Positions 4,141 through 52,120 of a stretch of 64,000 bases of DNA are shown here, piece after piece (the first letter of the stretch is position 1; each line of letters opens with the position of its first letter). Made by a program: the position numbers and the translations under genes. The stretch comes from Euglena gracilis (taxonomy: Eukaryota), in assembly GCA_039621445.1 (NCBI GenBank), contig CP154954.1, positions 23,696,954 through 23,760,953 of the forward strand, given 5' to 3'. The notes under the pieces are model-generated. The model made no database searches. It had not been told where the DNA came from and worked only from the letters and a program-made list of their open reading frames with translations.

Positions 4141-4576
4141 TAAGACCCCCCGGAAAATAAGACCCCCCCCCAAAATAAGACCCCCCAAAATAGGACCCCC
4201 CCCCTGGGCCGATCAAACAAAAATCCAAAAATAAGACCCCCCCCCATAAATAGGACCCCCCCCGACGGTGAAAATTTTCCAAAATAATTACCAAAACCCC
4301 AATTCCATAAACAAATGATGAAATTTCAAAAATTTTCAGAATTTTGAAGTGCAAAAAACATGGTAAATGTCAATTTACACCAATTCACACATGGCGCGAA
4401 GCGCGAAAACTTTGGTGCTCTTGGGAACCTGAAAAATTATGTTTTTTTGGGCCCGGGTCGGTCAAGAAAAAATCCAAAAATAAGATCCCCCCAAAAATAA
4501 GACCCCCCCCCCCTGGAGGTTTCCAGCAACGGACCCAAAAATAAGACCCGGGTCTTATTTTTGTGGGGGGGGGTTA
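4141..4576. mobile_element. MITE with AAAATAAGACCC subterminal repeats
   Basis: Ends CCCCCCGGAAAATAAGACCC / GGGTCTTATTTTTGTGGGGG are inverted. A related copy in the opposite orientation lies at 8275-8733. Confidence 0.7.
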
Positions 4577-4675
4577 GGTTTTTCTCTTTGATCGGTATCT
4601 TTTTTTGGACCTCCCAGAATCATGTTTTGTTTGCAAGGTTGCTATTTTGGATGGGACAAGAATAGCTAATGGCGA

Positions 4676-4688
4676 NNNNNNNNNNNNN
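4676..4688. other. Assembly gap (N run)
   Basis: Run of n characters. Confidence 1.
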
Positions 4689-5032
4689 AGGTCAAACTGC
4701 TCAGCGTCGAATTCCTCGTGATCCGTGACCATAGATTCACTTGACACCTGTGTGACCCCTCTGGGCGATTTTGAGAGTGGGTGGGTGGGTCCTGGACCCC
4801 CTCCCCGGGGGGGGGGGGGTGGGGTGCGCCGTGGGCGGGTTTCCTTTCTTAGGAGGTTTGCACCCCCTAAAGACCACGTCAAATCACGCACAGTCACATC
4901 AAATCACGATTGAATTTTCGGTCGCTGGTTTTGTGGAAAGTGTGGGTTTCCACTGCGGCGGGATGGAACCGCCTCCCCCTTCGTTTCACTGCCCAAACTG
5001 TCACCGGGCACAGCGCCTCGCCCCCACACCAC

Positions 5033-5445
5033 ATGGCAGCGGAGGCCACGCTCCACCTCTCGTCCACGGATGTCCCCAGGGTTTGGCCGACTGCCCAGGC
5101 CTGAGTTCTGCTCTTTTCGCCTCAGAGTGGGGGGGGGGTACTCTCCGCTGTGTGCCCAACCCTGGCAGTGCCCTTGGCGTACTTCGACATGGACGCCGGG
5201 ACCCTGGGCGCCATCAAGAAGTTCCCCGCCTTCGCGGACTGGGCGCTGGCAGTACCCAGCCACCCCGAGTTTCGCGTCACTGGGTAGGCTTCCGTTCGTG
5301 GCAACACAAGTTGTGGACAAGATGAGTGCTGTGCTGTCACAGACATCATGGTGCCTGAGTGAGTGTGTACATGAGTGAGTGAGTGAGTGTGTGTGTATGC
5401 CGTTTGGTGTGGTACATGGCATGGCGTGGCGTCGCATGACGTCGT

Positions 5446-5522
<77 letters not shown>

Positions 5523-8500
5523 AGTTATTAAGCCAGACCCGTCCTACCACTGGGGGTCCAGCCACCCAGCACCTTTTCCCCAGACAGCAGCTCCCAGCCA
5601 GGCTAAGGACCCCCCCCCCCCTGAGCGGTAATAAAGTTTTGCAGCCTGTAAAGCCGGCCTGGACTGAAAGTATTTGAAAAGTGTTCAAAATATACAAAAT
5701 GGCCATTTTTGACCGTCCATATTTTGGCTGAAAAAGTACATGCCAGCTGAGTTTGAGCCCTTTTTTTTGCCTGTTTTCAGGTGCAGCTGGGTCCAGCCCG
5801 GCAGCCGGTAGGACCCCCCCAGCCAGCCAGTACCTTTTTCCAGCCGCACCCCAGGGGGTCCTGAAATAAATTAAATGGTGCATACGTATGCCAGTCCCTG
5901 AGCGGCGTCACGGAAGCCTGTCACCAAGGTGGAGGTGGAAAATGTGCGGTGGATTGGGCAGCGAGTCGATGGGGTCCGGGCAAAGGTGGACGTGCAGTCG
6001 ACGTCTGGTCAGGTGGTGACGCAGGCCACAGGGTTGCCTGTCGTTTGCCATTGCCAGTCCGGGCCGTCGAAGGTTCTTCAAGCATTTTGGTGGGGGGGCG
6101 GTCTTCACGAAGAATGGGCGGCTGGGTTTGGCACTGGAACTTTTTTTTTGTGTCGGATGACTCCACCCCTGGGGGTGGGTGGGTGGGTGGTCCGGGGCCA
6201 AGCCCCCCCCCAGGTGGCTCAGAGAGGTCCCCACGCCAGGGGGCCTGAGTCTGAGCTGCCAGAAAAGCTCCAGAAAATCTTTAGAAAACGCCTTCAGACA
6301 CTCCCCCCCCCCGCCCCGGGTTTTGAGCTGTCCTGGGTGGTGGGGCGCCCCTCCTCCTTCATCCTTCTCAGGGATCGCAAAGCGAATCTCTGGATACCAC
6401 CGCTGCGCCATTTGGGTGAGGAACACTGGAACTTCCCAAAGCGTGGCACACACCACACAACCCCCACACAAGACAAGCAATGAGAAGAAAACAGGTCTAT
6501 CCATAAGGTTGCCAAGCCGGAGGGGAGCCACCATCTGGGCCAGGGGCGGTCACAAAAATACAAGAGAATCAGGCGGCCTAAATGAGACTCCCCCCCAAAG
6601 CTTTCCAGCAAAGCACCTAACTCCCCGCCCCCCAATTGAATCACGGGGCCGCAACAAGCGCAGGGTCCAAATAGAGCACCTGCTGCCAAAGGCGACGATC
6701 CGCTGCAAGCGCACCCCTCATTTCCATGGGATTTCTAAATAAAATCAACAAAAATCTCGCAGGTAGGGTCCAACTAGAAGCGCACCCCCCCGTCGCGGCG
6801 GTCCGAGGCCCAAGGGTCCGAGGCGGCGGTCCGCTGTAAGCGCAATGTGCTTCTATTGGGGGTTTAACAGTAAGTCCCGGGTCTTATTTGGGGGACGGTC
6901 ACAACAACACCTGCGGGGGTCTGAAACTCTCCTTCATCGAAAAAGCAGAAAACGGCGGTTTATTTGAAAGGCTCGGCCGGCAGCGATTCTGCGGCAGCGC
7001 CGTGTGGCGCGGTGGTGGACACGGCGGAGCACAAGGAGCTGGCGGTGGTGCTGCCCGTCCTGCGACGGCCCGGGGGGCAGTTCCTCTTCCTCGAGCGGAG
7101 CACCTTCGTCACCCCCGGCCGCCGCTCCCTCGTCGCCCTGCAGGGCCACGTGGCGGGGCCCCGGGACGTGCCCAGGGCCACTGGCCAGTCAGCCGTTTGA
7201 AAACCTGACGTCGCTCCAGCTCGCCAAACTTTTTTTTTTGCAGTACGGGTCGCCAATGGTCATTGCGCCAATATCGACCCCCTCACAAGGAACCCCCTGG
7301 GCTGCACAAGAGAGTCAGCATGGTTTGGAGCCCCCCCCCCCCCGGTGCTCGTCCGCAATGTCGGCCCCCCCGTCGGCGTCCCACACCCTGCCCCCAGTGC
7401 TGCGCGACGCCGCGGCGCTGGAGGCCATTGGGCTGCACCCCAGCCACGCTGTTCCCTGGTGGGTGTCCTGCCCTCGCAACCAGGCTCTGCTTAAGGGATT
7501 GCAGTACCCCCCCCCCCCGAGTGGGGGGCTGGACTGCAGCTAGTCCAAATTTGGCTAGTGGGATTTCTAGCAGACCTCCCCCCCCCCGGGAGGTCTGCTA
7601 GCAGGGCTAGCTAGTGGAATTTTTTTTCCAGTGACCGGCCCCCCGGTCCTTAAGCAGAAGCCTGCTCGCAACCCGGGGGGTGCATATACCCACCTAGTTT
7701 GAGAGAGAAAAGGACCTAAGAATATACACGTCCCGAGTGACGTGGCATGTGGCGTCACTCTAATCATGCATGACCTGTCCATTCGGGACACACCAGAGGT
7801 ACACGAATCCATGGCTGAGAGCAGTGATGAGAGCGAGCCCCAGCAAGCCCGCAGGGTGGGTGGGGCAGTGCCTTGACGCGGGTATGACTGGCTTTTTTTG
7901 AGTGATCGGCTGGCTTCCCCTCCCACCCCAGAGAAGCGACGGTGTGGCCCCAGCCCGGCGGACATCACGCCCCTGTCCCCCAAGGCGTTCCACTGCAGCA
8001 CCGACGGCAGCGCGGAGGCAGTGCGCTTCTTCTGCTGGACGATCGGCGACCGCCCCATGACGCACTTCCCGGCGCCGTACGGCGCGCAGGCGACGGCCGG
8101 CGAATGACCACAACGCTGAAGGTGCGGAAGGTCTTCCAGCCCCCTGGGGCCAATTTCTGTACCTTTCTGAGCTTCCAGGGGGTTCTCATGGCAAGTTTTC
8201 AGCAAGTTTTAGGGTTTCACATACCTAGCCCCCCCCTGAGAAATTGCTATGCCCGGGAAACTGTCATGGTCCCAGTAAACCCCCCCCAAAAATAAGACCC
8301 CGGGTCCATTTCATGGGTCGGTTGCTGGAAAGCCCGAGGGGGGGGGGTCTTATTCATGGGGGGGTCCATTTTATGGATTTTTGCTGGAAAATTTTCGACC
8401 CCCCATAATGTCCAAAAATGCCCCCCAAAATACCATTTTTCGAAAACTTCGGCGCTTCGCGCCAGACAAATAGGGGAAAATATGCTGAATTGTATGGAAA

Positions 8501-9189
8501 CTGTCCCAAAATGACAGATTTACCGCCCAAAAATAAAAAAAAAAAAAAAAATCCGGCGCTTCGCGCCGGCAGGGGGGGTCTTATTTATGGGGGGGGGTCC
8601 CTTCAGGGGGGTGGGTCCACAATTTCATGGATTTTGAGCTCGGACCGGCCAGGGGGGTTTTGGACCGGCCAGGGGGGGTGCTTATTTTCGGGGGGGGCCA
8701 TTTTATGGGGGGTCTTATTTTGTGGGGGGTTACTTGGTAATATCAAGGTCTCCGGTGCTGGCCGACCTTGAGGTGACCGTTTCCCAAGGGGGCAGTTTCA
8801 CTTCTTTTGGAGCTTTTTTTGCTGCCCAGCTCTGTCCCTCCCAGGGGTGGGGGGGGGCTTCTGTCCTTTCTGATTCAGTGTTGTTTAGCAAAATAACTAT
8901 TGTCCTCAGAACCTGGAGCCTGTGGCAGCGGGCCAACACCTGGGCGGCGGATCTGTCTCAACTGATGGCTTGGCATCATTCTTCGCAACAACCGCCCCAC
9001 ACACCCGCATCACCACTCCCCCCCCTTCCTGCCTGGCGCCTGCCCCCCAGCCACCAGTTCGTGCTGGTGGGGGAGGCGGAGGTGGAGGAGCAGGTTTTCG
9101 GCCACGCCGCGGGCAAAGGGGAGCTGCGCATCACGGACGCCAACACCGTCCTGGCGCTGGCCCTCTACCGCAAGCTGCAGCGCGGCTGA
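5033..9189 (+). CDS. Nudix-fold protein (NUDT14/ADP-sugar pyrophosphatase-like, degenerate Nudix box), 7 exons, ~240 aa
   Basis: Exons about 5033-5073, 5170-5281, 5926-6023, 7011-7169, 7396-7441, 7952-8083 and 9049-9189 join in frame: MAAEATLHLSSTDVPLAYFDMDAGTLGAIKKFPAFADWAL...VEVENVRWIGQRVDGVRAKVDV...LAVVLPVL...CSTDGSAEAVRFF...ITDANTVLALALYRKLQRG*. The order of blocks parallels plant/fungal NUDT14-like proteins. Junctions are uncertain by 1-2 nt. Confidence 0.8.
5170..5281 (+). CDS. Nudix-like gene exon 2
   Basis: GC3-rich frame PLAYFDMDAGTLGAIKKFPAFADWALAVPSHPEFRVT. Confidence 0.8.
5447..5521. repeat. (GT)n microsatellite
   Basis: Perfect dinucleotide run. Confidence 0.98.
5926..6023 (+). 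CDS. Nudix-like gene exon 3
   Basis: KVEVENVRWIGQRVDGVRAKVDVQSTSGQVVTQ, preceded by the intron end CTGTCACC|. Confidence 0.8.
7011..7169 (+). CDS. Nudix-like gene exon 4
   Basis: VVDTAEHKELAVVLPVLRRPGGQFLFLERSTFVTPGRRSLVALQGHVAGPRDV. Confidence 0.8.
7396..7441 (+). CDS. Nudix-like gene exon 5
   Basis: VLRDAAALEAIGLHP, bounded by CTGCCCCC| and |AGCCAC. Confidence 0.7.
7481..7664. mobile_element. hAT-type MITE (intronic)
   Basis: TIR CAGGCTCTGCTTAAGG / CCTTAAGCAGAAGCCTG, with a perfect 8-bp TSD CTCGCAAC on both sides. Same family as 19506-19891. Confidence 0.9.
7952..8083 (+). CDS. Nudix-like gene exon 6
   Basis: SPADITPLSPKAFHCSTDGSAEAVRFFCWTIGDRPMTHFPAPYG. Confidence 0.8.
8275..8733. mobile_element. 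MITE with AAAATAAGACCC repeats (intronic)
   Basis: TIR GTAAACCCCCCCAAAAATAAGACCCC / GGGGTCTTATTTTGTGGGGGGTTAC. Inverted homologue of 4141-4576. Confidence 0.75.
9049..9189 (+). CDS. Nudix-like gene last exon
   Basis: SHQFVLVGEAEVEEQVFG...ITDANTVLALALYRKLQRG*, which contains the I-x-D-A-x-T C-terminal helix motif of ADP-ribose/ADP-sugar pyrophosphatases. Confidence 0.85.
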   Translation, partial: SHQFVLVGEAEVEEQVFGHAAGKGELRITDANTVLALALYRKLQRG

Positions 9190-11308
9190 CCCCCCCCCCC
9201 CCCCCCGGGCTCCCCCTTCGCCTGAACGGGTGCACGGCTTCTCTGTGGTCTGTGGGGTCGCCTGCGCACAAGGTGGGTGCTTACTTCATCCATGCGTGGG
9301 GTGGGTTTTTTTTGAATGTTGCAACTTTCACTTCCTCCATCCTCCCGCAGTTCGATGCCAACCCTCAACGTTTTGGACCCGAACCGATGTATGTCTGTTG
9401 TGTGTTTCAGCGTTGCTGCTGGCGTGCCGCTTCCCTGCAGCAACCTCGAACTGAACACTTCTGTTGCGAAGTCGGAAGTGGCAAGGCGATAAGAGGGAAA
9501 AGGGGTACAGGGTGGTCCACACAGAATCGGATTTTTCTAAAAAAGGCTTCTGAAGGTGTGGAGTTTTGCCAGCACTGGCAAAACTCCACACATGTCAAGA
9601 TTCTCATGGAAGAGATTTTGCGGCATTTTTTTTGAGCTGGTTTAGGTATGGGAGAGGAGAAGCAAGGAAGCAGATAAGGGGTAACGGGTCCTCATGTTGT
9701 GTGGATCTCTGCCAAACTGGTCGTCATTGCATGCAAGCAAAATTATTGGTTCGTGGTTCGTCTCCACCCTACCCACACCGGCCGTTTTTTGGGACCAAGA
9801 CTTTCCGGAATTTGCATTGGGACGAATTTAAGCTACTTTCTTTTCTTATTCCTTTTCCTCGAATGGCTCTCCTTGAAATACTTTTTTTGTTGTGTGCACA
9901 GCAAACAGTGCCCATACCCATTTCCTTTCTACAAGCATGTTTGTCTACATCTGAAATTTGATTACCATGGCCAAGCAAAACATCTCGAAAATTCGTAGCA
10001 AGATCTGAAATTCAGTTAGATCCAAATAATAATAATTTTTCATATCAATTTTTAATTCGGCTGTATGTTCGACTTTGTTTGATTTTGGGTTCGATTCTTC
10101 CCGAGCATGCAGGGATGCAGGAAGGTCTAGAGGGGGGGGGAGGTTGGTAATGCAATAAAATCTCTGCGTCCTTCACAGGTCGTTTGTGATCACGATGCAT
10201 GCAACGTACTGCAGCGGACGATGGGTCTCGACGTGACTCTGTTTCAGCCACCCCTGGATTGCATTCATGCTTCATTTTCTTCCACCATGGTACAGGGGTT
10301 GACATTTTTTTAAGCATGTTGATGCCGAGATATGGGAATGAGTTCTGATTGCATGATGTTGTGTGTGCCCAAAAACCCCCCCCCCCAAATACCCCCCCCC
10401 CCCCGAAGCCCAGCCCAATCCTAAAAACCAAATCCCCCCAAACATGCAGCCTTTCCCGTTGGTTGTTGACAACCCAAAAGAAACATTTCTCTAGACTCCT
10501 AGGTGCAATTTTCCGTTTTCCGATGAAGAAGGGCCCACACTGTCCCAACTTGGCCAAGACCACTCGGAGGGACAGGAACGCACCCTCATAACAAGGAGGA
10601 GGCAGGAGGACGTGCCACAGTGGCAATGGATTCTCTCAATCATTCCAATGAGGCAGCCAAGGAGGGAAACCCTCGGCTCAAAGATACCACACTGTATGAT
10701 GTCTTCATTATGTCCACATTATGATTCATGTCTATATCTACCCCTGCATGAATAATTGATGCCAGAATGGGGGGCTGCGTTCTGGGTGGGCGAGAGAAAG
10801 CCGGGAGAGCTCCCATCCTGGAGGGGTGCACTTTGGCTGTTTGGTGCGGAACATCTTCGGGACAGGCAGCCAAAACGGGGCGGGGGAGGATGGTGGTCCC
10901 CCAGAAACTGCTGAAAAATCGGCGGTCATTATTGTGACCGGCAATTGCGACCTGTTTAACTGGTGAGTTTGTACAAAGTTTGCGCAAAATAATACACACG
11001 GCCCAGGGCAGGCTCTGGCTGCCGAGAGGCCATCTGAGGACCTCTGGGCGACGCCGCCTGCCACAGCTTTACATGCCGAGACAAGTTTTTTTTGCACGTG
11101 TTGCCTTTCGGTTTTTATTTGGGGAAATGTTGGACGGTGCAAGGGAGCGTTGCAGATGCGTTTGCGCAGCTTTGTGGCTTCCGCGCAGCTGGCGAACGGT
11201 GTGCTGCCTTGCGGCTTACCCGGGGAGGGGGTGGGGTAGGGTTGTGTGCCCAGCGGCCCATTCCTCGGAGTTCCTGTGCGTTCCAGAGGTGCCGGCAGTG
11301 GTGTGGCG

Positions 11309-21390
<10,082 letters not shown>

Positions 21391-23129
21391 TGGCTTGCTG
21401 CTGGCCCCCTGACCACCCTGACAGTGCCAGAGACTGGCGAACGAAGTGACGGGGTCCATGGCTTAGTGCGATGCGGGTGAACAGAGTGCCAGTGCAGGGA
21501 ACGCATTCACCGCAGTCTACATTATCTGTCCCCAGCCTTGGTTATTGTTGGTTTACCCATTTCTCTCGCCACCAATGACAAGACACAGCACGTGGAAAAG
21601 AACCTGCCAGTGACACTTGCATGCACACGCGCGTTCAAGTGCCAGTGTTCCAGTGCCCTCAATACTTGCCGGAAGAGCTCGACTGACACAAGTGCCGGCT
21701 GCCCCCGCCCGCCCGTCCAGTGAGGCCCTGTCGGCGGTGGACCCGATGGACCTCCTCTCCCCCCCCTACCCCCCCCCCCTACCCCGCCTCCCAAACGTCC
21801 GGGGAGAGGGAGCCCTTCCCCTCCACCGTGTCCTCTGCCGCTCAGGCCCACCCCCTCCCTGGGGCAAGGGGTTTTTTTTTTAGTCTTGGACCCCGGGGGG
21901 GGGAGGGTGGGTGGGTCTGGCCGAGCCCCCCCCCCCCCCCCCCCCCGGGGGTGTCCCCTCTAGGGGGGGTGGGATATACTTTTTGGCGTCAAGGTGCCGA
22001 AAAATTTGAAAAAGTGCTGTTTTTAGCATTTTTCGCAATTTTTTTTATCCATTTTCGGGGAAAAGTTAGTGGGTCCCCCTCCCCAAAATGGCCTCTCCGG
22101 TCCCAGGTCGTTGGGTTTGGGTGGGTTCGGCCTGGTCCCAACGCCACCCCGCGGCTTCAGCCTCCGCCCGACGAGCCGCCGTCCCCGCCGTTCCCTGGCC
22201 GCCCACCATTGACTAATGCTGGGCAGCCCCCCGAGCCCCCCTCCCCTCCAGCCTGACAGTGCCGCGAGTGTCCAATGAGTCGAGGCCAGACTTTGTTTGG
22301 GGTGGCGGTGGCTGATTGGTCGATGGTGTTTCGTGTCTTTCCAAAAGTGCGGGGGGGGGGCTGAGGAGGGCGTCGGGAAGCCCATTGCGGTGTGGACAGT
22401 ATTGGGCGCCCCTTAATCGTCCCGAAGGTCCCCCAGATTGCCAATCAATCTGCCCTTTTATTGTCGTCGCACGGCTCGGGATGGCTTGTGCGGCGGTCCT
22501 GCCAGCCCCGACACATTCGGCGTTCGCCACACCAGAAGGTGGCACCAATCCGCCCTCCCCCCCATGTACTCCACTGTCCCCTCCTGTCGGGGCGAGCTGA
22601 TCCTCTTTACACTTACTTGAATTTCTTGTGCGACATTTTCTTTTGCTCGGCCGAGAAAGTGTCGTCGGGCCGTTGGGACACATTTTGTTGTTTGGTGCAC
22701 TTGGAGAGTTTGCCTGGGGAACCTGGTGCATTCCATTTCGGAGAGAAATCTGCCTTTGGCACATCAATGTCAAACGGTGCCAATCAGTACCAACGCCAGA
22801 GTAAGTTATTTCCCCCAGGTCCGATTTCAGCAACAAAAATATGGAAGAATAACAAAAAATCCATGACAAATTTCCAGAAATTTTTTCCAAAAAATTATTT
22901 TTTTTTGTCACAAAAGAAAACTGAAAAAGAGGGTCGTGGTGGAGTAATTTTTGACGCCAATTTTGCCCAAACAATCAGCCTCCACGGACGGGGAGCCCGG
23001 GCTCGTACTCCCTTGAGGAATGCCGACCAGGGAGGAAGGGACACCGAGGGCTTCCGCTCCCGAAGGCTCCGCACTTTGCCTTTGTGAGGCCAGATTGTGC
23101 ACTGAAAAAAGGGGGGCCAGGGCATTCTC

Positions 23130-25138: not shown

Positions 25139-25759
25139 TTATTTACGATTTGGGTGGGCTGCAGGGTGAACTTTTTTACATTTATTTTGAATGCTGATTT
25201 TGATAAAATCCCTGAACACTGCGTTCAGGTGATTTTGTAGGATGCTTTGCGCTGGGGCCACAAGTAAAGTGTCGTCCAGGTAAATAAATACTTGGATGCC
25301 CCTTTTCCTCCACAGCTTTTCGAATGTCTTCATTGCTGACATAAAAATTTGGGGCATTACGTTTAGGCCAAAACAGCCTGCCTGGAATTCACAGGTCTGC
25401 CCACCCACCTGATGTCTTAGAAAAGGCCTTAGGGCCTGGCTCACTGGGATGTGGAAGTAAGCATCCTTTACGTCTATTTTTGCTGCCCAGTCGCTTTTTT
25501 CAAATACTGGAAAAATGTGCTGGATGTGATCCAGCTTGAAAGGTTTCACTTGGAACCTTTGATTTAATTCCCTGCAATCACTTATTAATCTCCATCTTGT
25601 CTGCCCCCCTTCTGGTTTTGAAATCGGAAACCAGGGGATTAGGTGCTGGGTGGTTGAATACCTCACCCTCTTTACGGATCCAGATTTTTCGTAATCCTGC
25701 AGAATTTTTCCTGCTTGGTGTAGGTTCAAATTTGCCCTGGTTTTTGGCTGGGTGGACAA
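25139..25759 (-). pseudogene. DIRS-type reverse transcriptase
   Basis: WRLISDCRELN...KIDVKDAYFHIPV...FGLNVMPQIF...IYLDDTLL. Confidence 0.92.
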
Positions 25760-26563
25760 TTTTGGTGGGTTTAACCAGGGGGGTTGAATGCCGTCCCTGA
25801 TGAGTTGACGTGTTGTTGGGGTGGGAATTTTTTGTGCACAATTTCAGGCTTTTTTGCAGCATTTGATAGAGGGGGGTGTCTCCACATTTTTTCTACATGG
25901 AATTTATTTCCTGGATAAGATGATTTTGGGGGGGCTGGGCTGGGGATGTTGGACATTGCACCCCTAGGTCCCCTGGGGCTTGGGCACTTGGAAAAAGAAA
26001 TTTTTCCTGGGGGGATGTGCATGCACTCTCTCTCCTCTCTGCTCACATCTCTGGAGGATCTTGTTGTTGAAAGACATACTTAATGCTTAATGCCCCTGTT
26101 TGCCTATCAAGTCTTCTTCATGTTGATGTGGTTGGTTGACATACCATAGGAGGGCCTCTGTTGGTCTCCCCGTGGTTGAACAATCAGGACTTGAGAAATT
26201 AATGTTGGAGGGGTTCCTGCCACTCCCTCCAAAAGGGCAACCGTGGGTCCCTTTTCCTCTTGGGATTGGGTTATTGAAAGGGCCACTGTGGGTCCATTTT
26301 CCTCCTGGGGCTGGGTGATTGAAAGGGCCACTGTGGGTCCATTTCCCCCCCATTTTGGGCAGAGGGCCTCTGTGGGTCCCTCGGGGGATTTCTCCAGCAG
26401 CTTGGGGATGATGTCCCTTAGCTTCTTTGGTGGCCACTGTGGGTCCACCCTGCTGGCCTCCAAGGCCTCCATGTATAAAGACTTTTTCCATCTGTTGGCC
26501 TTCCAGGCCTTGAGTTCTTCTTGGCCTGCAACACCACTGGAAATCTGGGGGGGCTGCTGTGGC

Positions 26564-27705: not shown

Positions 27706-30700
27706 TCACCTGCCTTTATCGGCTGGACGTTCGCGCACCACACGCCAGTAGTCGTGTTGGGGGTCCCCTAATGGGTCCTCAACCAACTCCAGTTGGCGCG
27801 GGGAACGCGGCGGATCTGATTCACTCCGAATGGTGTTGAGCTCCGGATCGTTGGCATCAAAGGAAAGGGTCTCCCAGTCCTTGATCCAATTATTCGGCAG
27901 CTTCTCCCTGGTACGGTCAGCATGATGCTGAAGATACCGTTGGAGCTGCTCCCAGAAAATTCTGGGCAGCATCACCGGCCAGATGATGTAATTCATCCGG
28001 GGGTGATTCGCAGGCACCTGCGGGGGCATCCCTGGGGTCTGCTTGAAGTTGATGTCATACAGCCACCTCGCTGTCCGAGCTCGTGCGGTATGGGGCCGTA
28101 ATACAGCCGCCAACCAGCCTCTGAAGTCCACCAACTCGTGTTCTTCAGGAGGCCACAGTGGCAAGGCGTATCCGCCATGCTGACGCTTGGAGAACAGGGG
28201 GTAAACCTGTGTCTCCCAGTCGCCATCAGTCCAGAGGTAAGGCATTCTTCCCTTGGCGTGTTCCTCGACGGCGAGGCGCATTGCCCCAGCGTCGATCTGG
28301 AACTCACGGGCCATTCCCGTGTGGCGGTAGCTTTCTACCTTTCGGAAGTCGGAGTGCTTCAGGCGGCCTTCCACCTGTTTGTACTCCTTCTTCCACTTCT
28401 CAAGTGTCTCCCAGTGGTGGGGGACAATGGTGGTGACTGCTCCATCAGCAGTCTGCACGAACTTGGCCCCTATACAGTTGATGCACAAGGCAGGGATATC
28501 CCTGTCGTGAGCATTCTCACTGTAGGAGTAGTTCAAGCTGTGCTTCCAGGCGTTCAGGCACTCGCCACATACGAGCGCCACACAGTTCGGCACATATGCC
28601 CTGTGGTGGAACGTCGTGGATTGCACCTGCCGCTTGCACACATGCACAAGCGGTTGGTTGTGCCGCACACGGTGGCACACGGTGCACGTCCAGGCAAAGG
28701 ACGTGCCGTGCTGGAAATCCAAAACGCAGTCCTCACCAAAGTACTGTGCTAGTACTCTGGGTGAGCGCCTATTCCAGAATGTCCAGGTATGTTCCGGGAC
28801 ATAGTGGAAAGGTTCTCCTCGGACGAAGAGGGGTTGAATCCATCGATTCAGTGACCCTTTCTGGTGCCTAATAACAGCCAGTTTCTTCGTCCTCTCGTCC
28901 ACGGTGCCTAGTCTGGTCAGGATATCCTGAGTTCAGAGCTGGGCATCCGCAGACACAGGAGGTGAAGCAGGTTCATCCTGCTCCTCATCCGTCGATCCGG
29001 CGGAAGACTGGGCCTGTCGACCACGAGCCTTACCTTTCGGTTTGCTCTGGCCGTACCCGGACGATGCAACGGCCGAATAGTTGTGCATTGTCGTAGGGCC
29101 TTTCGGCTGTCCGCCAGTCTGACCTCCAGCGCCACCTTTCGGTGGTGGTTTCCCATCACCGCCTTTGGCAGGGGGCTTACAGGGTGCAGCACCCGGTTTG
29201 CCTCCTTTCGGCTTCGCACTCCCGGAGTCAGGAGGCGACGCCTGCGGCTTACTCCTGGTATCAGGAGCCGATGGTGCCGGAGTAGACGCTTGCCGTCTGG
29301 GCGAAGCGGGCATACTGACCGCTGGGTCGCGCATGACGCTCCGGGGGGTCGGCACACGTTCCTGGGGTTGTTCAGCCGTCCGTCGCCGAGCAGGTTCATC
29401 CTGTCCAACGAGGCGTGGCACTGTAATCGTCACCGGAATCGGTGCTTCCACAGGCGCTGGCACTCCCAGAAACTCTGCCATTGTCTTCGGGACGGCAGGG
29501 ACCCTGCGCGGTGTCGGTGGTCGTCGGGGTATCTCCTCCACTTCCATTTCGACATCCGGTGTAGGAGGTTGATCCTCCACAACCGCTGGCGCAGGTGCTA
29601 CGGGAGGTTGATCCTCCGGTGTAGCCGGTGCGACAGATGGCTCTGTCAGCTGGGGTTCATCCCCTGAAGGTGGTTGCACTGCTGCCGGAGATGGGGGTGT
29701 GGGGACACCGACATCTGGTGTCTCCACGACCTCGGCGGTGGAGCTTGATGCTACGCCTCCACCTCGTGGCGTTAGTGCTGCAGCCACGGCAGTAATGCCG
29801 GTGACTACGGCGCCGAGCACACGGCCTCCTAACGAGGTGCGTGCTGTGGGACTGGCAGGCTCTTCGAGGATATCCTCGACGACCATACCAGTCACCTCGG
29901 CTGGATGCTCAGCCGCTGGAACAGGCGTAGCATCCATAGGTATATCCCTGCAGGTGCTCCGTCTGGCCTAGGCTGTGCCGGAGCAGGCAGAGCAGCGTAG
30001 AGGATATCCTCCACGTTCTCACCTTCCTCCTCAGGAAGTTCCTGGTCTCCACCTACCAGTGGACAGACGGAAGCCGCCGCGGGAGCCGGGGAAACCGATC
30101 GTTCCCCTGCCGCTCGCGGGGCAGAGACGAAGGATACAGCCGTTCCTGTCGGAGACGGCGGCGCTGCCTCCAGAATGGTGACGGACGGGCTGCGGTCGCG
30201 TTCCTCCCGCCGCGGAATCGCGGTGGTGGAAGCGACTGACGCCTCACGTCTCCTTCGCGCCAGAGTTTCATCCTCTGGGGCGATGAAGCCGCGCAGATCC
30301 TCAGACGAACGAGGATCGTCGGGGTGCCATCGGCATCCCTGGGCATCCGCCAGCCTGTAAAATGCCAGCGTACGGCTGCTGGCGCTGTTGGGCCAGGGTG
30401 GCGACCATGATGGCTGCACCCAAGCGTTGGCAGGCCTGTTCGGGCCCAGGAATCCGCGGTAACGCGTATCCTCCCAGACCTCGAAAAAGCCCTCCTCGAA
30501 CTCCTGAACGCATGCCAGAATCGGCATACGCTGTTCGAGGATGGCCTGCGGGTGACACATCAGCGGAAGGAATACCTCCCGGTCGAGGGTACCGCCAAAC
30601 CGTCGCCGCAAATGTTCTTCCAGGCTGATATCAGCCAGGTGCCAGTTGGGGCGCAGGTGGCCGAGAATCCGACGACGAGGACTCTCGATGGCGTCACCGT

Positions 30701-31196
30701 AATCCGGTGGCAGGCTTTCCATACCAGGCCTATCGTCCTGGGGATCACGGAGATGTATATACACCTCCATGACATAGGTAGTCCGGGCTCGCCACCAGAA
30801 CTGCTGCAGCATAAAAATACGCTGCTTGTGGACGCGGCGACTTTTGCCCTGGACATCCGGGGCGTCGCGGCACACATGCATAAGCATGCGGCGTCCCATC
30901 TCCAGGCCCGGGTTATCCCGAGGCGGTGGAGGACTTCCGCGCACGCCGAATCCCCAGAAGTCGACAGGAAATTCCTGCCGGCAGCACTTACAACAGAGGT
31001 CATACCTCTGTGGGTAAGCCAGGGAAACTCGCTTAACGCGGAAGGTGGAGCCGTAATGGCTCACCAGCCACACCTGGAGGTTGTTGCACCACAACACCTC
31101 GATCAGGCGTTCGATGTCGGGGTGTAGTGGGTAGAATTCCCACTGCACGCCGAGGGGTCCGACTGTATGAATACAGTCGAAGATTGCCTTCAGCCT
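27706..31196 (-). pseudogene. Element A extra ORF, C-terminal part (frameshifted; Pro/Glu-rich linkers, Cys clusters, 8-Cys finger)
   Basis: Consecutive ORFs 29892-31226, 28933-29937 and 27706-28902. A homologous copy lies at 57300-60560 (+). Confidence 0.75.
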
Positions 31197-31200
31197 TCGG

Positions 31201-31651
31201 TGTGTACCAGGCAGCCGTAAGGCCACGGTACTGTGTATGTAGGTATAAGCCTACGGCCAGATATAGCTCTGAGCCCCATACACAGTACTGTGCTAGGTGG
31301 TATTCCTAAAGATGGCCAACGGCCTGAATTAGGAATACCTCACCCATATTCTGGTTCTCCTCTCCACAGGTGGTATTCGTATTCTTATTTTCTTCTTCAC
31401 TTGAATATCAAGTTTGATTTGTTTCATTTGAAGTCCGAAACGGACAGCCAAGTCACTTGGCATTTTCTTTGTGTAGCCCATAGGGCTTCTTCACCTGCCT
31501 TGTGCTCTGCATAAGCCCAAAGGCAATAAAAACTAATAAACTAATAGTTAATTAAAAGATTCTCTTTTTTTGTTACTCTCCTGGTTCTGTTCCCACGGGA
31601 GGGTGTAAGTAGGCCGACAGGCAGTGGGAATAGAGTCAGGGGACGTACACT
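31201..31651 (+). repeat. Element B 5' LTR
   Basis: TGTGTACC...GTACACT followed by TGGTAGCAGA. Confidence 0.93.
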
Positions 31652-32214
31652 TGGTAGCAGAATAGGTTACGAACCTACACATACTTCACAAACAGAAAGA
31701 CTACCAAGGAGTACACTTGGTAGTGTACTCCTTGGTAGTAGTACCAAACTGCCTGTCGGCCACACCCATACCCACACTCACATCCCTACACTTGGTAGCA
31801 GAGTAGGTTTCTTTCCTACACCCCTTCTCCCCCCCCCATCTTAACAGGTGACTTCAAACAGTGAGTGGTGCTGAGCCTATAGGCTACAAAGCATCTACGA
31901 GCTGTTTGGAGCCAACTTCTAAGCACAGGTACAAGCTTCAGGAGGTTCTGGGCAGTATACGCTGCCACATCCTTCTAAGTTTGTTCCTTTGCTTACCTTT
32001 TGGGGTTTGATTGTGTTTGTTTCTGCAAATAAAAATATGCAGAGCTCAAGCACCAACACACTCATTGATTACCAAGAATTGATAAGTTCTTTGAGAAGCA
32101 CTTGTCATGAATTTTTGCAAGAGGAGTATACGCTCCAGTCCAGGTATTTCCCAAGCTCTATAGAGCATCCCCCACGCCAAAATTTCCAGCTCTATTGAGC
32201 ATCCACCCACCCCA

Positions 32215-39747: not shown

Positions 39748-40198
39748 TGTGTACCAGGCAGCCGTAAGGCCATGGTACTGTGTATGTAGGTATAAGCCTA
39801 CGGCCAGATATAGCTCTGAGCCCCATACACAGTACTGTGCTAGGTGGTATTCCTAAAGATGGCCAACGGCCTGAATTAGGAATACCTCACCCATATTCTG
39901 GTTCTCCTCTCCACAGGTGGTATTCGTATTCTTATTTTCTTCTTCACTTGAATATCAAGTTTGATTTGTTTCATTTGAAGTCCGAAACGGACAGCCAAGT
40001 CACTTGGCATTTTCTTTGTGTAGCCCATAGGGCTTCTTCACCTGCCTTGTGCTCTGCATAAGCCCAAAGGCAATAAAAACTAATAAACTAATAGTTAAGT
40101 AAAAGATTCTCTTTTTTTGTTACTCTCCTGGTTCTGTTCCCACGGGAGGGTGTAAGTAGGCCGACAGGCAATGGGAAAAGAGTCAGGGGACGTACACT
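39748..40198 (+). repeat. Element B 3' LTR
   Basis: Repeat of 31201-31651, preceded by the PPT GGGAGGGGGA. Confidence 0.93.
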
Positions 40199-42560
40199 TC
40201 GGGCCAACACACGCTGGTCCCGAAATCCCAACTGGTGCAGGTAACTGCGACCAGTGGAGTCGCTGAAGAGACCCCAGTTCTGGCAGGGGTATCCCAGCCA
40301 AAACCAGAGCTCCCAGAAACCCGGCTGGGCATCCAGCAAGGGTCTGCTACCTTCACCTTCGAAGGCGTACAGATCTATTCCGTAATGGAATAGTCTGACT
40401 CTGTTCTCGGTGTGGCGTAATACCACATCGATGACTGCTTGTGGAGGGGTGACGGGGCGGTTCCCTGCAACATGGTAATCATGCTGCATTCGCCAGCCTT
40501 CGTCTTCCAGCTCCTCCTTGAACCTGAGCAGATGCTCAAAGTCCGAGAGAACTTCTGCTGGTTCTTCTTCCTCCTCACGTGCTGTTCCCTTACCTTTACC
40601 CTCACCCTTCCCTTTGCCGGCCACGCCTTTGCCTTCTCCCTTGCCTTTGCCCTCGGCCTTGCCTGTGTCCTTTCCCGTCTGGCGAATACCAGAGGGTCGG
40701 GCGCTCGGTGCCGCAGGAGTCGGTTCGGTTCCTTCCCATTCCATCTCTGGGGAGGGACCTGGCCGACCCGCTGCACGTCGCGGTGATGGCGTGGCTGGGC
40801 GCTGGCTAGGAGTCTGGCGTGTGCTTGGTTTCGACGCAGGGGGTCGCGGCTCCTTCCATACCGGAGGGATCGGCGGTGGCATAGCCGCAACAGGACGGCT
40901 CATCGCCACCTGTGCCTCTGCCGGTGGTCGTCTAGCCGGGGTATCCTGGCTGGCTTCCACTTGCATCGCCACACCGCCTTCCGCGTCCCGTGGGCTGGGT
41001 CGCCTGGGCTGTGGGGTAAGGTTCTCCGTAGTCCTGTCGCGCTTCAGGGTGGCAGGTAATACTGCCACACCTGCCGGGGGCTCACCGGGTAATACCGGGG
41101 TTGCCACCCGCAGCTGCGGCTGGTACGGATGGTAGGTGTATCCACGACCCTGAAGGGCAGCCAGAGAGGCGTAATACCTCGTCCGGTGCTCTTCAGACAC
41201 GAATACTGGCTCCTGTAGGAAGTGCCGAGCAAGCTCATCCTGCTCGGTTCCCGGAGGCGCCATGTGGTAGTAGGAAGTCTCCTTCCGACAGGGGATATCC
41301 CCAGTCTGGACAGGAGCTGCACTGGGCGATCGGGCTGCCACACGGTGGGGAGGTTCATCCTCCACCACTATGAGCTCCGCCTGCCGCCGTGGCTCAACGC
41401 CAGGGACAGGGGCGACGGTCTGTGGCATCCAGTGCATGAAAGTGTTGACGTACTCAGGGGGCACGTCCGACTGTCCGGCTGCGTGTGCGCCTGTGCTTTT
41501 CCGCTGCCCGCGGCTTAACCCTTTGCCATCTCTTGGGGGGGTATCCTGGCTGGTCGTCCTATGCACCCAAATGTCCCTGTGGGCTGGCGGGGGTCTCCTC
41601 CTGTCGCGCAGGGGGTCTGCCACTGCCGGACAACCGGGGCCACCCTGAATGGGGGACGGGGGGGCGCTCTGGCTCCTCCTGAAGGAAGTGCCGTAGTCGC
41701 GCCCGGAGGCCGCCTGGATACTCTGGACAGGAGCTGCCAGGGGGGGCCGGGAGGTGCTCACCACTGCAGGTGCAGCGGGAGGGGGGGGCAGGCCAGGGGC
41801 ACAGGATATGCACCGCCCGCCCGCCTCGGCGCGGGCTGCGTGCTGCCACGGATCCTGCTGCTCCTGCGGGGGGGCCGGCGAGGGGGGCGAAAAAATTCAT
41901 CCCAGGTGGGACATGCACAGCCTCACCTAGGGGGCGTGGTGCATATGCGGTGTGGGATCCCACCGGCGTCTGCGTTTGCACATGTGGGCGGCACATACAC
42001 GCCCAGGTCCATCATTGTCTCGCCAGGCTCGAATCCGGAATCGGATGCCGACGAGAAATACCGTCTCCCCGTCATCAGGGCTTGACCACAGGGACACCAC
42101 TGAGCCACAGGGGTGTTGGCTACCACCAACAACTGAGCACAGTATGCATCCCAAAGGGCTTGCATAAAGGGCTCCGTTGGGGGGTGTGCGCACATACGCA
42201 TCGCCCGCTCCAACGTCTCCGTAGTGCGGAAGATCATCTCTCCCGCATACGGGAGCAGGCGCGATCTGCGCTGCGCTGGTGGCTGAGGTGCCGGCTGCTG
42301 GACGGCAGATGGATCTGGTACCGCATATGCGGACCGGCTGCTGGTAGCCGCGGCGAATACCGGGGCTGAAGCCCTCTCAGCATGTGGGGCACCCGGAATC
42401 GGGGCCTCAGCATACTGAGGGTACTGGGGGTATGGCGCGCCAGAAGGCTGCGGCCATGGTGGACCTGGTCCAGGTCCGCGCCCAGGCAGCATGATGCTAC
42501 CCGAACGACGACGACAACTAAGGGTAACCTTGTTGTCAGTCGCTTTGAGTGCTGGTGCAC
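40199..42560 (-). pseudogene. Element A extra ORF, N-terminal part (Pro-rich, frameshifted)
   Basis: ORFs 41923-42492 and 40088-41764. The latter reads into B's LTR and continues in frame at 31196 once B is removed. Confidence 0.7.
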
Positions 42561-42682: not shown

Positions 42683-43990
42683 TCAGAAAGCGTTTATGTT
42701 TATGTCTATGTTATTGCGCTTGTTCCACAGCTTCAAATCATGCTGGATATATCCAACAAAACTGGATGCCGGCTCCCAAGTGTCCTCCTCTGGCCCATAC
42801 CCTTTCCAGCGAACTTTCCAGTAGTGCACACCCCTGTCGACCTTGTGGTCTATTATCTTATCGACCACAAAGTCGTCCGTTTCAGGTAATCTGGAACGGG
42901 GCTTGAAATATAGGCAGGGGATAGCTTTTCCGTCTGGGGGGCTTAGGTACGGTTTGAAGTCGTCCATATGGACGTCCTCAATCCCGTTGGGCAAGGCAAC
43001 TTTATATCGCCCGCTACTACCTAACCTCTCCAATATTTCGCATGGGCCGAGCCAAAGAGGATCTAGCTTGGAAGATTGCATGCGGGTGCGGTTATTCCGT
43101 ACCCACACGCGGTCACCTGGACTATACACAGGTGTGTTGAAGTTCTGTAAAAACGATTTCCGTTTGTTGGAATGAATTTCTGTGATACGTGATTGGACTG
43201 CAGAGCGGAGTGATTCCACTTCTGCAAACTACGTTTCACAGCTGACGCTACTTCGGGCGGGTCTCTCCGAGGGGATATCCCCTATGGCCGGAGGGTCTCG
43301 TCCGAAAACAATTTTGTACGGTGAGTGTGGTAATACCAACCCTGGCAAGGTATTGATGTAAAATAAACACCAATGAAGAACGGATAACCAATTCTTACCC
43401 GAGTCAGCCAGTGAAAGGCGAAGCATATTCACAACGGATTTCACGGCTGCATCGGCTCTACCATTGCCTTTCGGGCGGTATATAATGGAAAAATGCTGCT
43501 CAATGCCGAGTAAACCGCACAAAGTTGTGAAAAACCGCGAAGAGATCAAGTGATCTTGATCACTCACGATTTCGTTCGGTAAACCCATTAAGCAGATACA
43601 TTTCTCCAGGAATATGGATGCCAAAATTTGGGCTGTCAACCCTGCTTTCCGGCATGGAATGGCTACTATGTACCCACTCAGCCGACAGACGACAACAAAA
43701 ACGTAATCGTAAATTTTGTCATCTGATCCTTTGCAAGGTTCAAGTTCGAGAAAATCCATGCAGATGGACGTAAAAATGTCTGGTGGTACGGGGAAAAAGT
43801 CCATCGTACCAGGGGGGGGGGTACCTCTGCGCGGTTTTACAGCCTGAAAAATTTGGCACCGTTACGAAAATCGCAAACAGCGCGAATATAATTCTTTTTC
43901 ACTCAGGGTTGTGCAATATCTGCGACCCTCCAGTGAAAGAAGTTCGGGGGCCCCAGGGTGACCATGGTTGTGATAGCTCAAAATCACATC
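42683..43990 (-). pseudogene. Element A integrase with GPY/F-like region and C-terminal chromodomain
   Basis: SICMDF...NEIVSDQD...PKGNGRAD; KLDPLWLGPCEI; VDKIIDHK...WKVRWKGYGPEEDTWEP. Confidence 0.92.
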
Positions 43991-45734: not shown

Positions 45735-45949
45735 TCAAACACCGAACGGGCCGCGAATCGCGGGGTCGATGTCGCAGGCGTAAACTGGGTTATCCAGTAC
45801 ACCATGAAATTCGCGAGTAATTCGCGAACAATAGTCAGCAGACTTGGGGTGTTGGTCCGCACTCTCAATGACCGCAGAAATCTGCGTTGAGGGTGTGGCA
45901 TCCCCATCCGTACCAAGGTATCTTGGCAGACGCAAATCGGATATTCCGA

Positions 45950-51766: not shown

Positions 51767-51954
51767 CTTTCTGATGACAAAAACAGTAAAAACCCAGAAA
51801 ACTAAGCAGTTGTGCTGGCACCAGAGGGGCTGTAACGGGTAATACCGTACAGAGCCTTCCGGGGCCTGCTCGTCTGCTTAGACGTTGACTAGAAGCCGGG
51901 AGCTGACGCTGCTACCGTGTAATAACGGTGCAGGGGCCCTCCGCTGCCACTCAG

Positions 51955-52120
51955 CGTAGGATCGAACCAACCTGCTACCAAGTGTAATACTTGATAGCGT
52001 TTCTTTCTGTATGGGCTGTATGTGTAGGATCGTGACCTAATCTGCTACCAAGTGTAATACTTGATAGCGTTTCTTTCTGTATGGGCTGTATGTGTAGGAT
52101 CGTGACCTAATCTGCTACCA
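51955..52120 (-). promoter_or_regulatory. Element A primer-binding region: three tandem TGGTAGCAG sites (70-bp duplication)
   Basis: CTGCTACCA ends at 51980, 52050 and 52120 on the + strand. Confidence 0.85.

Follow-up and report, generated by a model that had tools for sequence, protein, structure and literature searches.

Gene structure and intron geometry

The window analyzed here is a 64-kb stretch of Euglena gracilis-like nuclear DNA, in which exons match the EukProt proteins EG_transcript_25896 and EG_transcript_10281. The two corresponding genes, A and B, and those of their introns that matter for the following are:

Gene A, 5033-9186, + strand, homologue of EG_transcript_25896, 7 exons and 6 nonconventional introns
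Gene A exons, 5033-5073, 5170-5281, 5926-6024, 7012-7169, 7396-7441, 7952-8083 and 9049-9186, + strand, from a tblastn map with boundary enumeration
Gene A intron 1, 5074-5169, + strand, canonical N3-CAG...CTG-N5 followed by G, flanking 8-mers GATGTCCC and GCAGTGCC (5/8 in agreement)
Gene A intron 2, 5282-5925, + strand, 11-bp terminal stem opening with a TAG/CTG pair, TAGGCTTCCGT / ACGGAAGCCTG
Gene A intron 5, 7442-7951, + strand, nonconventional, 510 nt, exons ending at 7441 and resuming at 7952
Exact 8-nt direct repeat CCCCAGCC, 7438-7445 (left) and 7948-7955 (right), + strand, bordering gene A intron 5
Gene B, 11309-22591, + strand, homologue of EG_transcript_10281, 15 exons and 14 introns, 0 of them GT-AG
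Gene B intron 9, 19394-20219, + strand, canonical GAT-CAG...CTG-CCCCC followed by G, contains MITE2
Gene B intron 10, 20413-20886, + strand, 13-bp terminal stem, not CAG/CTG

The gene A query exon shares 98% identity with protein P0001, and exon mapping of the transcript-derived protein identifies 5074-5169, 5282-5925, 7170-7395, 7442-7951 and 8084-9048 as introns. In intron 3 of this gene (approximately 6025-7011) no 3/5 register fits, and the predicted duplex crosses both junctions; intron 2 harbors a (GT)37 array. The gene B product is a secreted or membrane-bound protein in which Pfam recognizes teneurin-like EGF domains; the gene was mapped as 16 blocks, since a 13-nt duplication splits exon 13 in two. 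In gene B intron 12, window and transcript disagree, which leaves the boundary without resolution; going by the signature only, this intron would span 21381-21706, and it was excluded from all counts. The small sample consists of 20 introns in the two genes, 19 of them resolved, plus two MITE copies. A codon-usage scan detected coding-like ORFs in genes A and B alone, and therefore the intron set of the window cannot be enlarged.

Euglenid nonconventional introns are reportedly described also by Milanowski et al. in works of 2014 and 2016. The published splicing code for those of Euglena reads N3-CAG-helix-CTG-N5 followed by a purine, or in its general form 5'-N3CDG...CH'GN5-6 followed by R (Nomura et al., 2025, PMC12501133), and such introns account for approximately 72% of the E. 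agilis introns and for 86% of the non-slidable introns of E. gracilis (PMC12501133 and its SI). None of the 19 resolved introns of the window has GT-AG ends. With the register of slidable introns picked by motif, on protein-level evidence only, they distribute over the following geometry classes:

N3-CAG...CTG-N5, then purine: 8/19 resolved introns
Same register, complementary triplets of different sequence or a CA/TG pair: 7/19 resolved introns
6-nt 3' spacer: 2/19 resolved introns
4-nt 3' spacer: 1/19 resolved introns
No fit or no spacers: 1/19 resolved introns

The earlier note on this DNA had taken pairing of CAG at +4..+6 with CTG at -8..-6 as the rule for host introns. This holds for the 8 introns of the first class, but 7/19 use other pairs and 4/19 lie outside the register. 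Altogether, 9/19 resolved introns conform to the strict code and 15/19 to the 3/5 register, while the two spacers add up to 9 or 7 nt in 3/19. In all 15 register-fitting introns the downstream exon starts with a purine, and the three-nucleotide 5' spacer has a consensus of its own, with G at +1 in 11/15 and C at +3 in 9/15. The two ends of an intron read as an imperfect inverted repeat, approximately 10-12 nt long and specific to that intron, with the CAGG(C) core also present in the MITEs. Moreover, both junctions carry one common pyrimidine-purine consensus, which was likewise noted in PMC11282704 and is as expected of copies of one target site.

Intron 7442-7951 is absent from the transcript-derived protein P0001, where ...GLHP is joined to SPADIT.... 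Its boundary is slidable over 7438-7446, and no register in this range yields GT-AG ends. With 3/5 spacing, the paired triplets are CAC (7445-7447) and GTG (7944-7946) rather than CAG and CTG, so that the CDG/CH'G pair is missing at +4..+6 and -8..-6; in the sole CAG register (7438-7947), the CAG faces CGG and the exon starts with a pyrimidine.

An inverted-repeat element family nested in introns

Two members of one MITE family reside in the window, each of them within an intron:

MITE1, 7481-7664, 184 bp, CAG...CTG termini (start CAGGCTCTGCTTAAGG, end CCTTAAGCAGAAGCCTG), nested in gene A intron 5
MITE1 TSDs CTCGCAAC, 7473-7480 (left) and 7665-7672 (right), perfect 8-bp pair
MITE2, 19506-19891, 386 bp, CAG...CTG termini, same family as MITE1, nested in gene B intron 9
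MITE2 TSDs ACCCGGAC, 19498-19505 (left) and 19892-19899 (right), perfect 8-bp pair

As the earlier note had described, both copies (2/2) start with CAG, end with CTG and are flanked by perfect 8-bp TSDs. The inverted ends of MITE1 span approximately 17 nt with a one-base bulge, and those of MITE2 match perfectly over 17 nt (CAGGCATTTGCTTAAGG). The copies share about 87% identity over approximately 160 nt; the family, CAGGC...TTAAGG, can be written as CAGGC(A/T)T(T/C)TGCTTAAGG. The 17-mer of MITE2 has three matches with at most 3 mismatches in the window, compared to 0.25 expected from 100 shuffles, and no third family copy was found there by this pattern search, with the 8-mer core or by sensitive blastn. 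The minimum-energy RNA folds of the elements have -109.3 kcal/mol (z = -8.2) for MITE1 and -203.6 kcal/mol (z = -8.1) for MITE2, and in each of them the terminal helix lies exactly at CAG/CTG. Scans for terminal inverted repeats with duplications of 3-10 nt, and for 7-of-8 duplications with gapped inverted repeats, recovered none of the host introns. They also returned one more element with an 8-bp duplication at 10805-12139 and three weak candidates. Wherever an element in the window has clear duplications, these measure 8 bp.

The family can be called hAT-like on two criteria only, the CAG...CTG ends and the 8-bp duplications, and the hAT label given in the earlier note is unproven. hAT elements have the terminal consensus YARNG and the target preference nTnnnnAn. 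The MITE end CAGGC matches the former at 4 of 5 positions, and of the duplications CTCGCAAC and ACCCGGAC one has T at position 2 and both have A at position 7. The family thus resembles hAT MITEs in duplication length and in its short terminal inverted repeats beginning with CAG; it differs from them in agreeing with YARNG at only 4/5 positions and in having no transposase partner in the window, where Pfam detected no hAT or Merlin transposase domain in 269 ORFs of at least 95 aa (123 of at least 140 aa and 146 of 95-139 aa). The domains that this search did return were those of retroelements alone. The DNA transposons documented in E. gracilis are Merlin elements that make 8-bp duplications; in this superfamily the duplications measure 8-9 bp, and the terminal inverted repeats start with a conserved 5'-GG (PMC8101967). 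The MITE ends differ from this in beginning with CA. The termini of the MITEs and of the 10805-12139 element had no match among the sequence portions listed in the supplements of PMC8101967, a comparison that carries little weight; the MITE 8-mer core matched sequences from other species in these supplements. Rfam gave no match across the whole window.

Match of the elements to the Euglena splicing code

The requirements of nonconventional splicing have been determined experimentally (PMC12501133). The 5' spacer must be strictly 3 nt long. The optimum of the 3' spacer is 5 nt; one additional nucleotide costs 30-40% of the transcript, and with one fewer approximately 20% is kept. Also needed are a purine at the exon start and pairing adjoining CAG/CTG. 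Synthetic 50-bp introns that consist of N3-CAG, about 12 bp of pairing and CTG-N5, followed by a purine, are spliced precisely with nothing else, and foreign introns are spliced at a non-native exon site (PMC12501133).

Read together with its duplications, MITE1 has the form AAC-CAG...CTG-CTCGC followed by A, where the last three nucleotides of the left copy would serve as N3 and the first five of the right copy as N5. MITE2 correspondingly reads GAC-CAG...CTG-ACCCG followed by G, this purine being the sixth base of the right copy. Given a cut 3 nt inside the left duplication, exactly 3 nt precede CAG in both elements. Both further contain the complementary CAG...CTG triplets with the 17-nt inverted repeat and a terminal helix in the predicted folds, and in both CTG is followed by 5 nt and then a purine. 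Judged by sequence, the two MITEs with their duplications thus satisfy every element of the published code.

The arithmetic put forward in the earlier note, 3 + 5 = 8, is correct, and its two spacer lengths are those backed by experiment (PMC12501133). Because of this sum, a cut at the code distances would take out the MITE plus exactly one copy of the duplication, and owing to the self-complementary CAG/CTG ends such removal would work in either orientation. When transcribed, a MITE with its duplications would present three unpaired nucleotides, a helix running from CAG to CTG, five unpaired nucleotides and a purine, and cutting at 3 and 5 nt would restore the pre-insertion mRNA. MITE1 and MITE2 may be removed in this manner as nested introns. 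As the complete signal is carried along with the duplications, MITEs of this kind would be pre-adapted introners for the nonconventional pathway.

Repeats at the borders of host introns

If host introns descend from such insertions, the 8-mers predicted at their two borders should still resemble each other. For the 15 register-fitting introns these 8-mers are identical at 59/120 positions, compared to 43.5 ± 4.9 in 100,000 permutations (p = 0.0011). The excess persists without intron 7442-7951 (p = 0.0045) and for all 19 introns (p = 0.0047), and twelve offset controls gave 30-45 identities versus the 59 of the true register. The values quoted earlier for individual introns were all reproduced: 7/8 for 7442-7951, 5/8 for 5282-5925 (TCACTGGG / TCACCAAG) and 5/8 for 5074-5169, as well as the lack of a remnant in 7170-7395 (1/8) and 8084-9048 (2/8). 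The excess over a shuffled control, which the earlier note had proposed as a check, is therefore present in the window in aggregate, but it is absent from the 8 canonical CAG/CTG introns (23/64 versus a null of 23.9 ± 3.7, P = 0.64). The whole signal derives from the 7 non-canonical ones, which agree at 36/56 positions versus 19.6 ± 3.4. Terminal stem length and 8-mer identity are uncorrelated (rho = 0.17, p = 0.54).

The most conspicuous repeats are found in two introns. The one at 7442-7951 is an exact 8-mer, CCCCAGCC, and lies one nucleotide off the register of the earlier note. Gene B intron 10 (20413-20886) is bordered by the exact 7-nt direct repeat CGACCTG at 20407-20413 and 20881-20887. 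In both introns the repeat adjoins the terminal helix, and the 8-mers defined by this helix agree at 7/8 and 6/8 positions, respectively. Exact border repeats of at least 7 nt in 2/19 introns compare to 0.028 expected from random pseudo-junctions within 5000-22600, where repeats of at least 8 nt occurred at a frequency of 0.00077.

These data have to be weighed against coincidence or convergence. The 3/5 spacing could be a property of the splicing enzyme that sums to 8 by chance, any CAG...CTG inverted-repeat element would then look intron-like, and the border repeats could derive from a cleavage-site consensus, from other insertion or repair events, or from duplications of other lengths. This explanation would account for the lack of remnants in the canonical introns, the confinement of the excess to five positions (see below) and the existence of spacer sums of 9 and 7. 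It would also suit the lack of MITE copies among the introns: whole-intron copies of the family, which the earlier note had suggested looking for, are missing (0/20 introns in the window), both copies being nested within introns. In addition, the a priori odds that a duplication length equals 8 are roughly one in eight. However, the permutation test removes the common consensus, and yet an intron-specific excess stays (p = 0.001); chance likewise accounts poorly for the two repeats of 7-8 nt. Since foreign introns are spliced from a non-native exon site (PMC12501133), border repeats are dispensable for splicing, and for this reason they look like historical scars. Finally, coincidence has to explain three independent features together, namely the CAG/CTG ends, the adjoining helix and the equality of 8 with 3 + 5. 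We regard it as possible but lean against it.

The positional profile raises a second alternative. The excess is located exactly at -5 to -1 (41 identities observed versus 24.2 expected), and none is seen in the 15 introns at the intron-side positions +1 to +3 (18 versus 18.1), although an 8-bp duplication predicts an excess there too; a repeat of 5 nt would explain this profile at least as well as one of 8 nt, and perhaps better. Introns might accordingly have arisen from insertions that duplicate 5 nt, with the three nucleotides before CAG representing the 5' end of the element (G-S-C-CAGG), in line with the spacer consensus reported above; the MITEs in the window would then be unrelated to intron origin. 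However, the G-N-C tendency also occurs in the starts of downstream exons, which raises the permuted expectation and thereby masks a duplication signal at +1 to +3. The two longest repeats, moreover, pass the junction, to +4 in 7442-7951 and to +1 in 20413-20886, the only elements with clear duplications in the window make 8 bp, and the profile is drawn from a sample of 15 introns. On this evidence, we consider a 5-nt duplication rather improbable.

Proposed origin of the introns

As a single explanation for intron 7442-7951 and the MITE family, we propose that such MITEs are pre-adapted introners and that some introns are decayed relics of elements making 8-bp duplications, a proposal to which we give an even chance. 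The gene of intron 7442-7951 is an expressed one of Euglena gracilis, and this nonconventional intron has the look of an old insertion, as its exact 8-nt repeat adjoins imperfect inverted ends; the younger MITE1 would have landed inside it later. Inverted-repeat elements that made 8-bp duplications probably survive, as decayed relics, in at least some nonconventional introns, most plausibly in this one and in 20413-20886. Descent of host introns from MITEs of the present kind is, like the superfamily of these MITEs, what we infer. As a whole, the introner route envisaged in the earlier note is partly supported.

The relationship could in principle run in the opposite direction, with the MITE family being a mobilized nonconventional intron, or a fragment of one, that a transposase had captured by its CAGG...CCTG ends. 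The terminal pentamer CAGGC of the MITEs is indeed common to several host introns, and MITE1 and MITE2 both reside within introns. However, duplications of 8 bp and inverted repeats of 17 nt, both of them perfect, are typical of transposase substrates, the stems of host introns are much shorter and imperfect, and no donor intron with internal similarity to the MITEs exists in the window. We therefore deem this direction highly improbable.

Descent of introns from MITEs also permits a further-reaching idea, which we advance with considerable doubt. One class of DNA transposon, cutting with an 8-bp stagger, could have left its imprint in the cutting distances of 3 and 5 nt, and the nonconventional pathway could have arisen, or have been kept, as an RNA-level eraser of CAG...CTG-ended inverted-repeat elements, each with exactly one copy of its duplication, in either orientation. 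These elements could then have colonized coding sequence almost freely and given rise to the majority of the nonconventional introns of Euglena, which number hundreds of thousands.

Paralogous copies at 49600-52100 and 55330-57350 were compared as a source of empty sites. The two indels between them, of 206 and 256 nt, have neither inverted ends nor duplications; they look like deletions and were discarded.

A concrete MITE family that carries the full sequence signal makes the general idea of a MITE origin specifically testable. If the proposed origin is true, it would explain the lengths of the 3- and 5-nt spacers, and the introner phenomenon would gain a non-spliceosomal case. If it is false, the border repeats, being dispensable for splicing, still call for another explanation.

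Comparison with known systems

The host introns of the window belong to the euglenid nonconventional introns as characterized in PMC12501133, and the MITEs with their duplications conform to the same code in sequence. Unlike these introns, the MITEs are repeated DNA elements bounded by terminal inverted repeats and TSDs, nested in introns and known here from their sequence, and intron 7442-7951 itself has CAC/GTG in place of the canonical triplets.

An origin of euglenid introns from MITEs has been suggested before in general terms, as the earlier note had stated: the inverted ends were interpreted as terminal inverted repeats, the border repeats as TSD-like, and insertion as the process that makes introns (PMC3935182; PMC11282704, legend to Fig. 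3D; PMC12501133). Transposable elements were then unknown in euglenids according to PMC3935182 (Milanowski, 2014), and the passages on MITE origin in these three papers name no element family, duplication length or superfamily. Here, by contrast, a concrete family making 8-bp duplications is available, and its duplication length is tied to the 3 + 5 spacers. A MITE origin with TSD-like repeats has thus been published; the arithmetic of 8 = 3 + 5 and a concrete code-compliant element family were not found in the literature searched.

A parallel is provided by introners, known from Micromonas and Aureococcus among others (Huff et al., 2016). They are non-autonomous DNA transposons that create an intron upon insertion; the splice signal comes in part from their duplication, and excision restores the coding sequence (PMC11282704). 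Introner families comprise many near-identical whole-intron copies, of which there are none among the 20 introns of the 64-kb window. Common to both systems are the insertion of a DNA transposon and a duplication that contributes to the splice signal. Introners are spliceosomal, however, with GT/GC-AG borders of which one site is co-opted from a 3-nt duplication (PMC11282704), whereas the mechanism proposed here would be non-spliceosomal and measured from a helix. Unlike in introners, the duplication would supply both spacers, with no demand on its sequence beyond one purine.

Genes and repeats of the window

Two genes were delimited by tblastn and exact k-mer mapping:

Gene A, 5033-9186, + strand: EG_transcript_25896 homologue, 7 exons and 6 introns
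Gene B, 11309-22591, + strand: EG_transcript_10281 homologue, 15 exons and 14 introns

The translated exon 6985-7169 matches the EukProt protein EG_transcript_25896 (P0001, 242 aa) at 98% identity, and an exon at 20040-20438 matches EG_transcript_10281 (P0002, 484 aa, with teneurin-like EGF domains); these matches identify the window as Euglena gracilis-like nuclear DNA. A codon-usage scan of the window found no coding-like regions beyond the two genes. The exons of gene B give 16 blocks in the mapping, exon 13 being split by a 13-nt tandem duplication (CCCCCCCTACCCC, 21759-21785) that shifts its frame away from that of the protein derived from the transcript. The adjoining region of intron 12 also departs from the transcript, by an extra codon and a changed C-run length. 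These differences could reflect an allele that is divergent or defective, or else an assembly error in a homopolymer.

Outside the genes the window is rich in repeats, among them a Ty3/gypsy-like retroelement (42686-50286, - strand) whose long open frames contain chromo, integrase, reverse transcriptase, RNase H and zinc-knuckle gag domains; a fragment of reverse transcriptase, separate from it, occupies 25142-25843 (- strand). Inverted paralogous repeat copies at 28374-31156 and 57809-60564 (81% identity over 2.8 kb) contain long ORFs without Pfam match, and other repeat pairs are present (e.g., 31201-31652 with 39748-40199, 99%). Gene A intron 6 (8280-8730) and the region upstream of the gene (4163-4583) contain repeated short palindromic GGGGTCTTATTT.../...AAATAAGACCCC modules in both orientations; a 13-N gap is also located upstream of the gene (4675-4688). 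Gene A intron 2 holds a (GT)37 microsatellite (5447-5521).

The MITE family and its classification

Two copies of one MITE family reside in introns: MITE1 (7481-7664) in gene A intron 5 (7442-7951) and MITE2 (19506-19891) in gene B intron 9 (19394-20219). As the earlier note had described, both begin with CAG, end with CTG and are flanked by perfect 8-bp direct repeats (CTCGCAAC and ACCCGGAC, respectively). They share the inverted ends CAGGC..TGCTTAAGG (perfect across 17 nt in MITE2, with a one-base bulge in MITE1) and are approximately 87% identical across the first 160 nt. The terminal 17-mer occurs three times in the window at up to 3 mismatches (0.25 expected), and no further copies of the family were found there.

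The same note had assigned the family to hAT. The 8-bp duplication and CAG ends are hAT-like, but the family matches the hAT end and target consensus sequences only in part, and a Pfam scan of 269 window ORFs detected no hAT or Merlin transposase domain. The E. gracilis DNA transposons on record, in the accessible text of PMC8101967, are Merlin elements, which likewise produce 8-bp duplications. Merlin ends begin with GG according to that study, whereas the MITE ends begin with CAG, and the E. gracilis alignments available from the supplement of that study also end differently from the MITE. We therefore refer to the family as 8-bp-duplicating and hAT-like, with no superfamily assigned.

A third element with inverted ends and a duplication spans 10805-12139 (1335 bp; 10797-12147 with flanks). 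Its direct repeat of 8 bp (AAAGCCGG) is exact, and its inverted ends (GAGAGCTCCCAYCC) agree at 13/14 positions. The scan that detected it gave 2 matches in the real window, against none in any of 60 simulated windows of matched composition. Within it lie the first two exons of gene B with the start codon, all of intron 1 and 46 nt of intron 2; the element could carry part of a gene in the manner of a Pack-MITE, or the overlap could be coincidental.

Match of the MITEs to the splicing code

Knock-in experiments showed that the 5' spacer of nonconventional introns must be exactly 3 nt, that the 3' spacer works best at 5 nt (6 tolerated, 4 poor), that the exon has to open with a purine and that pairing adjoining CAG/CTG is needed; synthetic 50-bp introns with these features alone were spliced precisely (Nomura et al., 2025; PMC12501133). 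Together with their duplications the MITEs read AAC-CAG...CTG-CTCGC/A (MITE1) and GAC-CAG...CTG-ACCCG/G (MITE2), and in the RNA folds of both the terminal helix opens at CAG and closes at CTG (z about -8). Both copies thus carry every sequence feature that the published code requires. As inferred from the sequence and the published experiments, cleavage at these two distances (3 and 5 nt) would take out the MITE plus 8 nt, i.e., exactly one copy of the duplication; since the reverse complement of CAG...CTG again reads CAG...CTG, this would hold in either orientation. The proposed 3 + 5 = 8 correspondence is a real geometric match to which the published experiments lend mechanistic meaning, but no intron of the window is itself formed by a copy of the family.

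Geometry of the host introns

Intron boundaries were derived from protein-level data by enumerating all donor/acceptor pairs compatible with the protein and then selecting the register by motif. Gene B intron 12, where the window departs from the transcript, was left out, so that 19 of 20 introns were counted. A GT-AG reading is possible for none of the 19, in agreement with published genome-wide E. gracilis figures, by which GT/GC-AG is absent from 86.4% of non-slidable introns (SI of PMC12501133). Eight introns read N3-CAG...CTG-N5 followed by a purine, and in seven this 3/5 register is kept by different triplets (TAG/CTG, CAC/GTG, CCG/CGG, TGG/CCA, GGG/CTC and, in two cases, CA/TG only). 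The downstream exon begins with a purine in all 15 register-fitting introns. The others comprise two with a 6-nt 3' spacer, one whose spacer is 4 nt long with C as the next base, and one without spacers.

Gene A intron 3 (6025-7011) lies outside every 3/5 register; its predicted end-to-end duplex crosses both splice junctions into the exons, leaving no unpaired spacers. Four of the 15 register-fitting introns end in CTG-CCCCC followed by a purine (7388-7395, 11996-12003, 16447-16454, 20212-20219), gene A intron 6 ends in CTG-CCCCCC (9040-9048), and the 5' spacer tends to G-S-C. The spacers are therefore non-random in this window.

Repeats at the intron borders

The borders of the window introns carry repeats in excess of chance, which speaks for duplication remnants. 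At positions -5..+3, the two 8-mers predicted as duplication remnants agree at 59/120 positions in the 15 register-fitting introns (permuted-partner mean 43.5 +/- 4.9, p = 0.0011; twelve offset controls, 30-45). Significance persists when intron 7442-7951 is dropped (p = 0.0045) and when all 19 are included (p = 0.0047). Two introns have exact repeats at their borders, of 8 and 7 nt, whereas repeats of at least 7 nt arise at random pseudo-junctions (5000-22600) with a frequency of 0.0015, corresponding to 0.028 expected among 19. In both introns the terminal helix adjoins the repeat, and the 8-mers set by the helix agree at 7/8 and 6/8 positions. Since foreign and synthetic introns are spliced without matching flanks, as the available text of PMC12501133 reports, such repeats are not a splicing requirement, and they are best read as insertion scars.

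The intron coordinates and individual identities previously listed were all reproduced (7/8 for 7442-7951, 5/8 for 5282-5925 and 5074-5169; 1/8 and 2/8 for the two negative cases at 7170 and 8084). For 7442-7951, the border repeat is an exact 8-mer (CCCCAGCC, 7438-7445 and 7948-7955), 1 nt off the proposed register, and in the 3/5 register CAC pairs with GTG instead of CAG with CTG. Other results speak against duplication remnants: the eight canonical CAG/CTG introns show no excess over permuted controls (23/64 vs. 23.9 +/- 3.7, P = 0.64), and the whole signal derives from the seven non-canonical ones (36/56 vs. 19.6 +/- 3.4, reached by 0/200,000 permutations). No relation was seen between the length of the terminal stem and 8-mer identity.

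Position by position, the excess falls only at -5..-1 (41 vs. 24.2 expected) and is absent at +1..+3 (18 vs. 18.1) and -6..-8. A 5-nt repeat at the borders fits the silent +1..+3 positions at least as well as an 8-nt repeat does; alternatively, a signal there could be masked by the G-N-C tendency that exon starts have in common with the 3-nt spacer. An 8-bp duplication would be expected to start at the left edge of the excess, -5, but this is not decisive because the constrained CTG begins at the same place. The window data are compatible with both lengths and do not separate them.

Relation to published models

That nonconventional introns have a MITE-like origin, as the earlier note mentioned in general terms, was indeed proposed in 2014 (PMC3935182) and restated later (PMC12501133, PMC12621601, PMC11170887). 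A 2024 review (PMC11282704) describes, in its accessible text, CAG/CTG at +4-6 and -8-6 as inverted repeats and intron borders often carrying TSD-like repeats. The accessible text of the MITE-origin accounts names no element family, duplication length, superfamily or link between 8 bp and 3 + 5 nt, and a literature search, covering text only and few subscription journals, returned no such statement either. The occurrence of CAG...CTG MITEs whose 8-bp duplications match the intron geometry is confirmed in the window, and their interpretation as an introner route is partly supported. Compared with the published MITE-origin hypothesis, this represents a new form that is concrete and testable.
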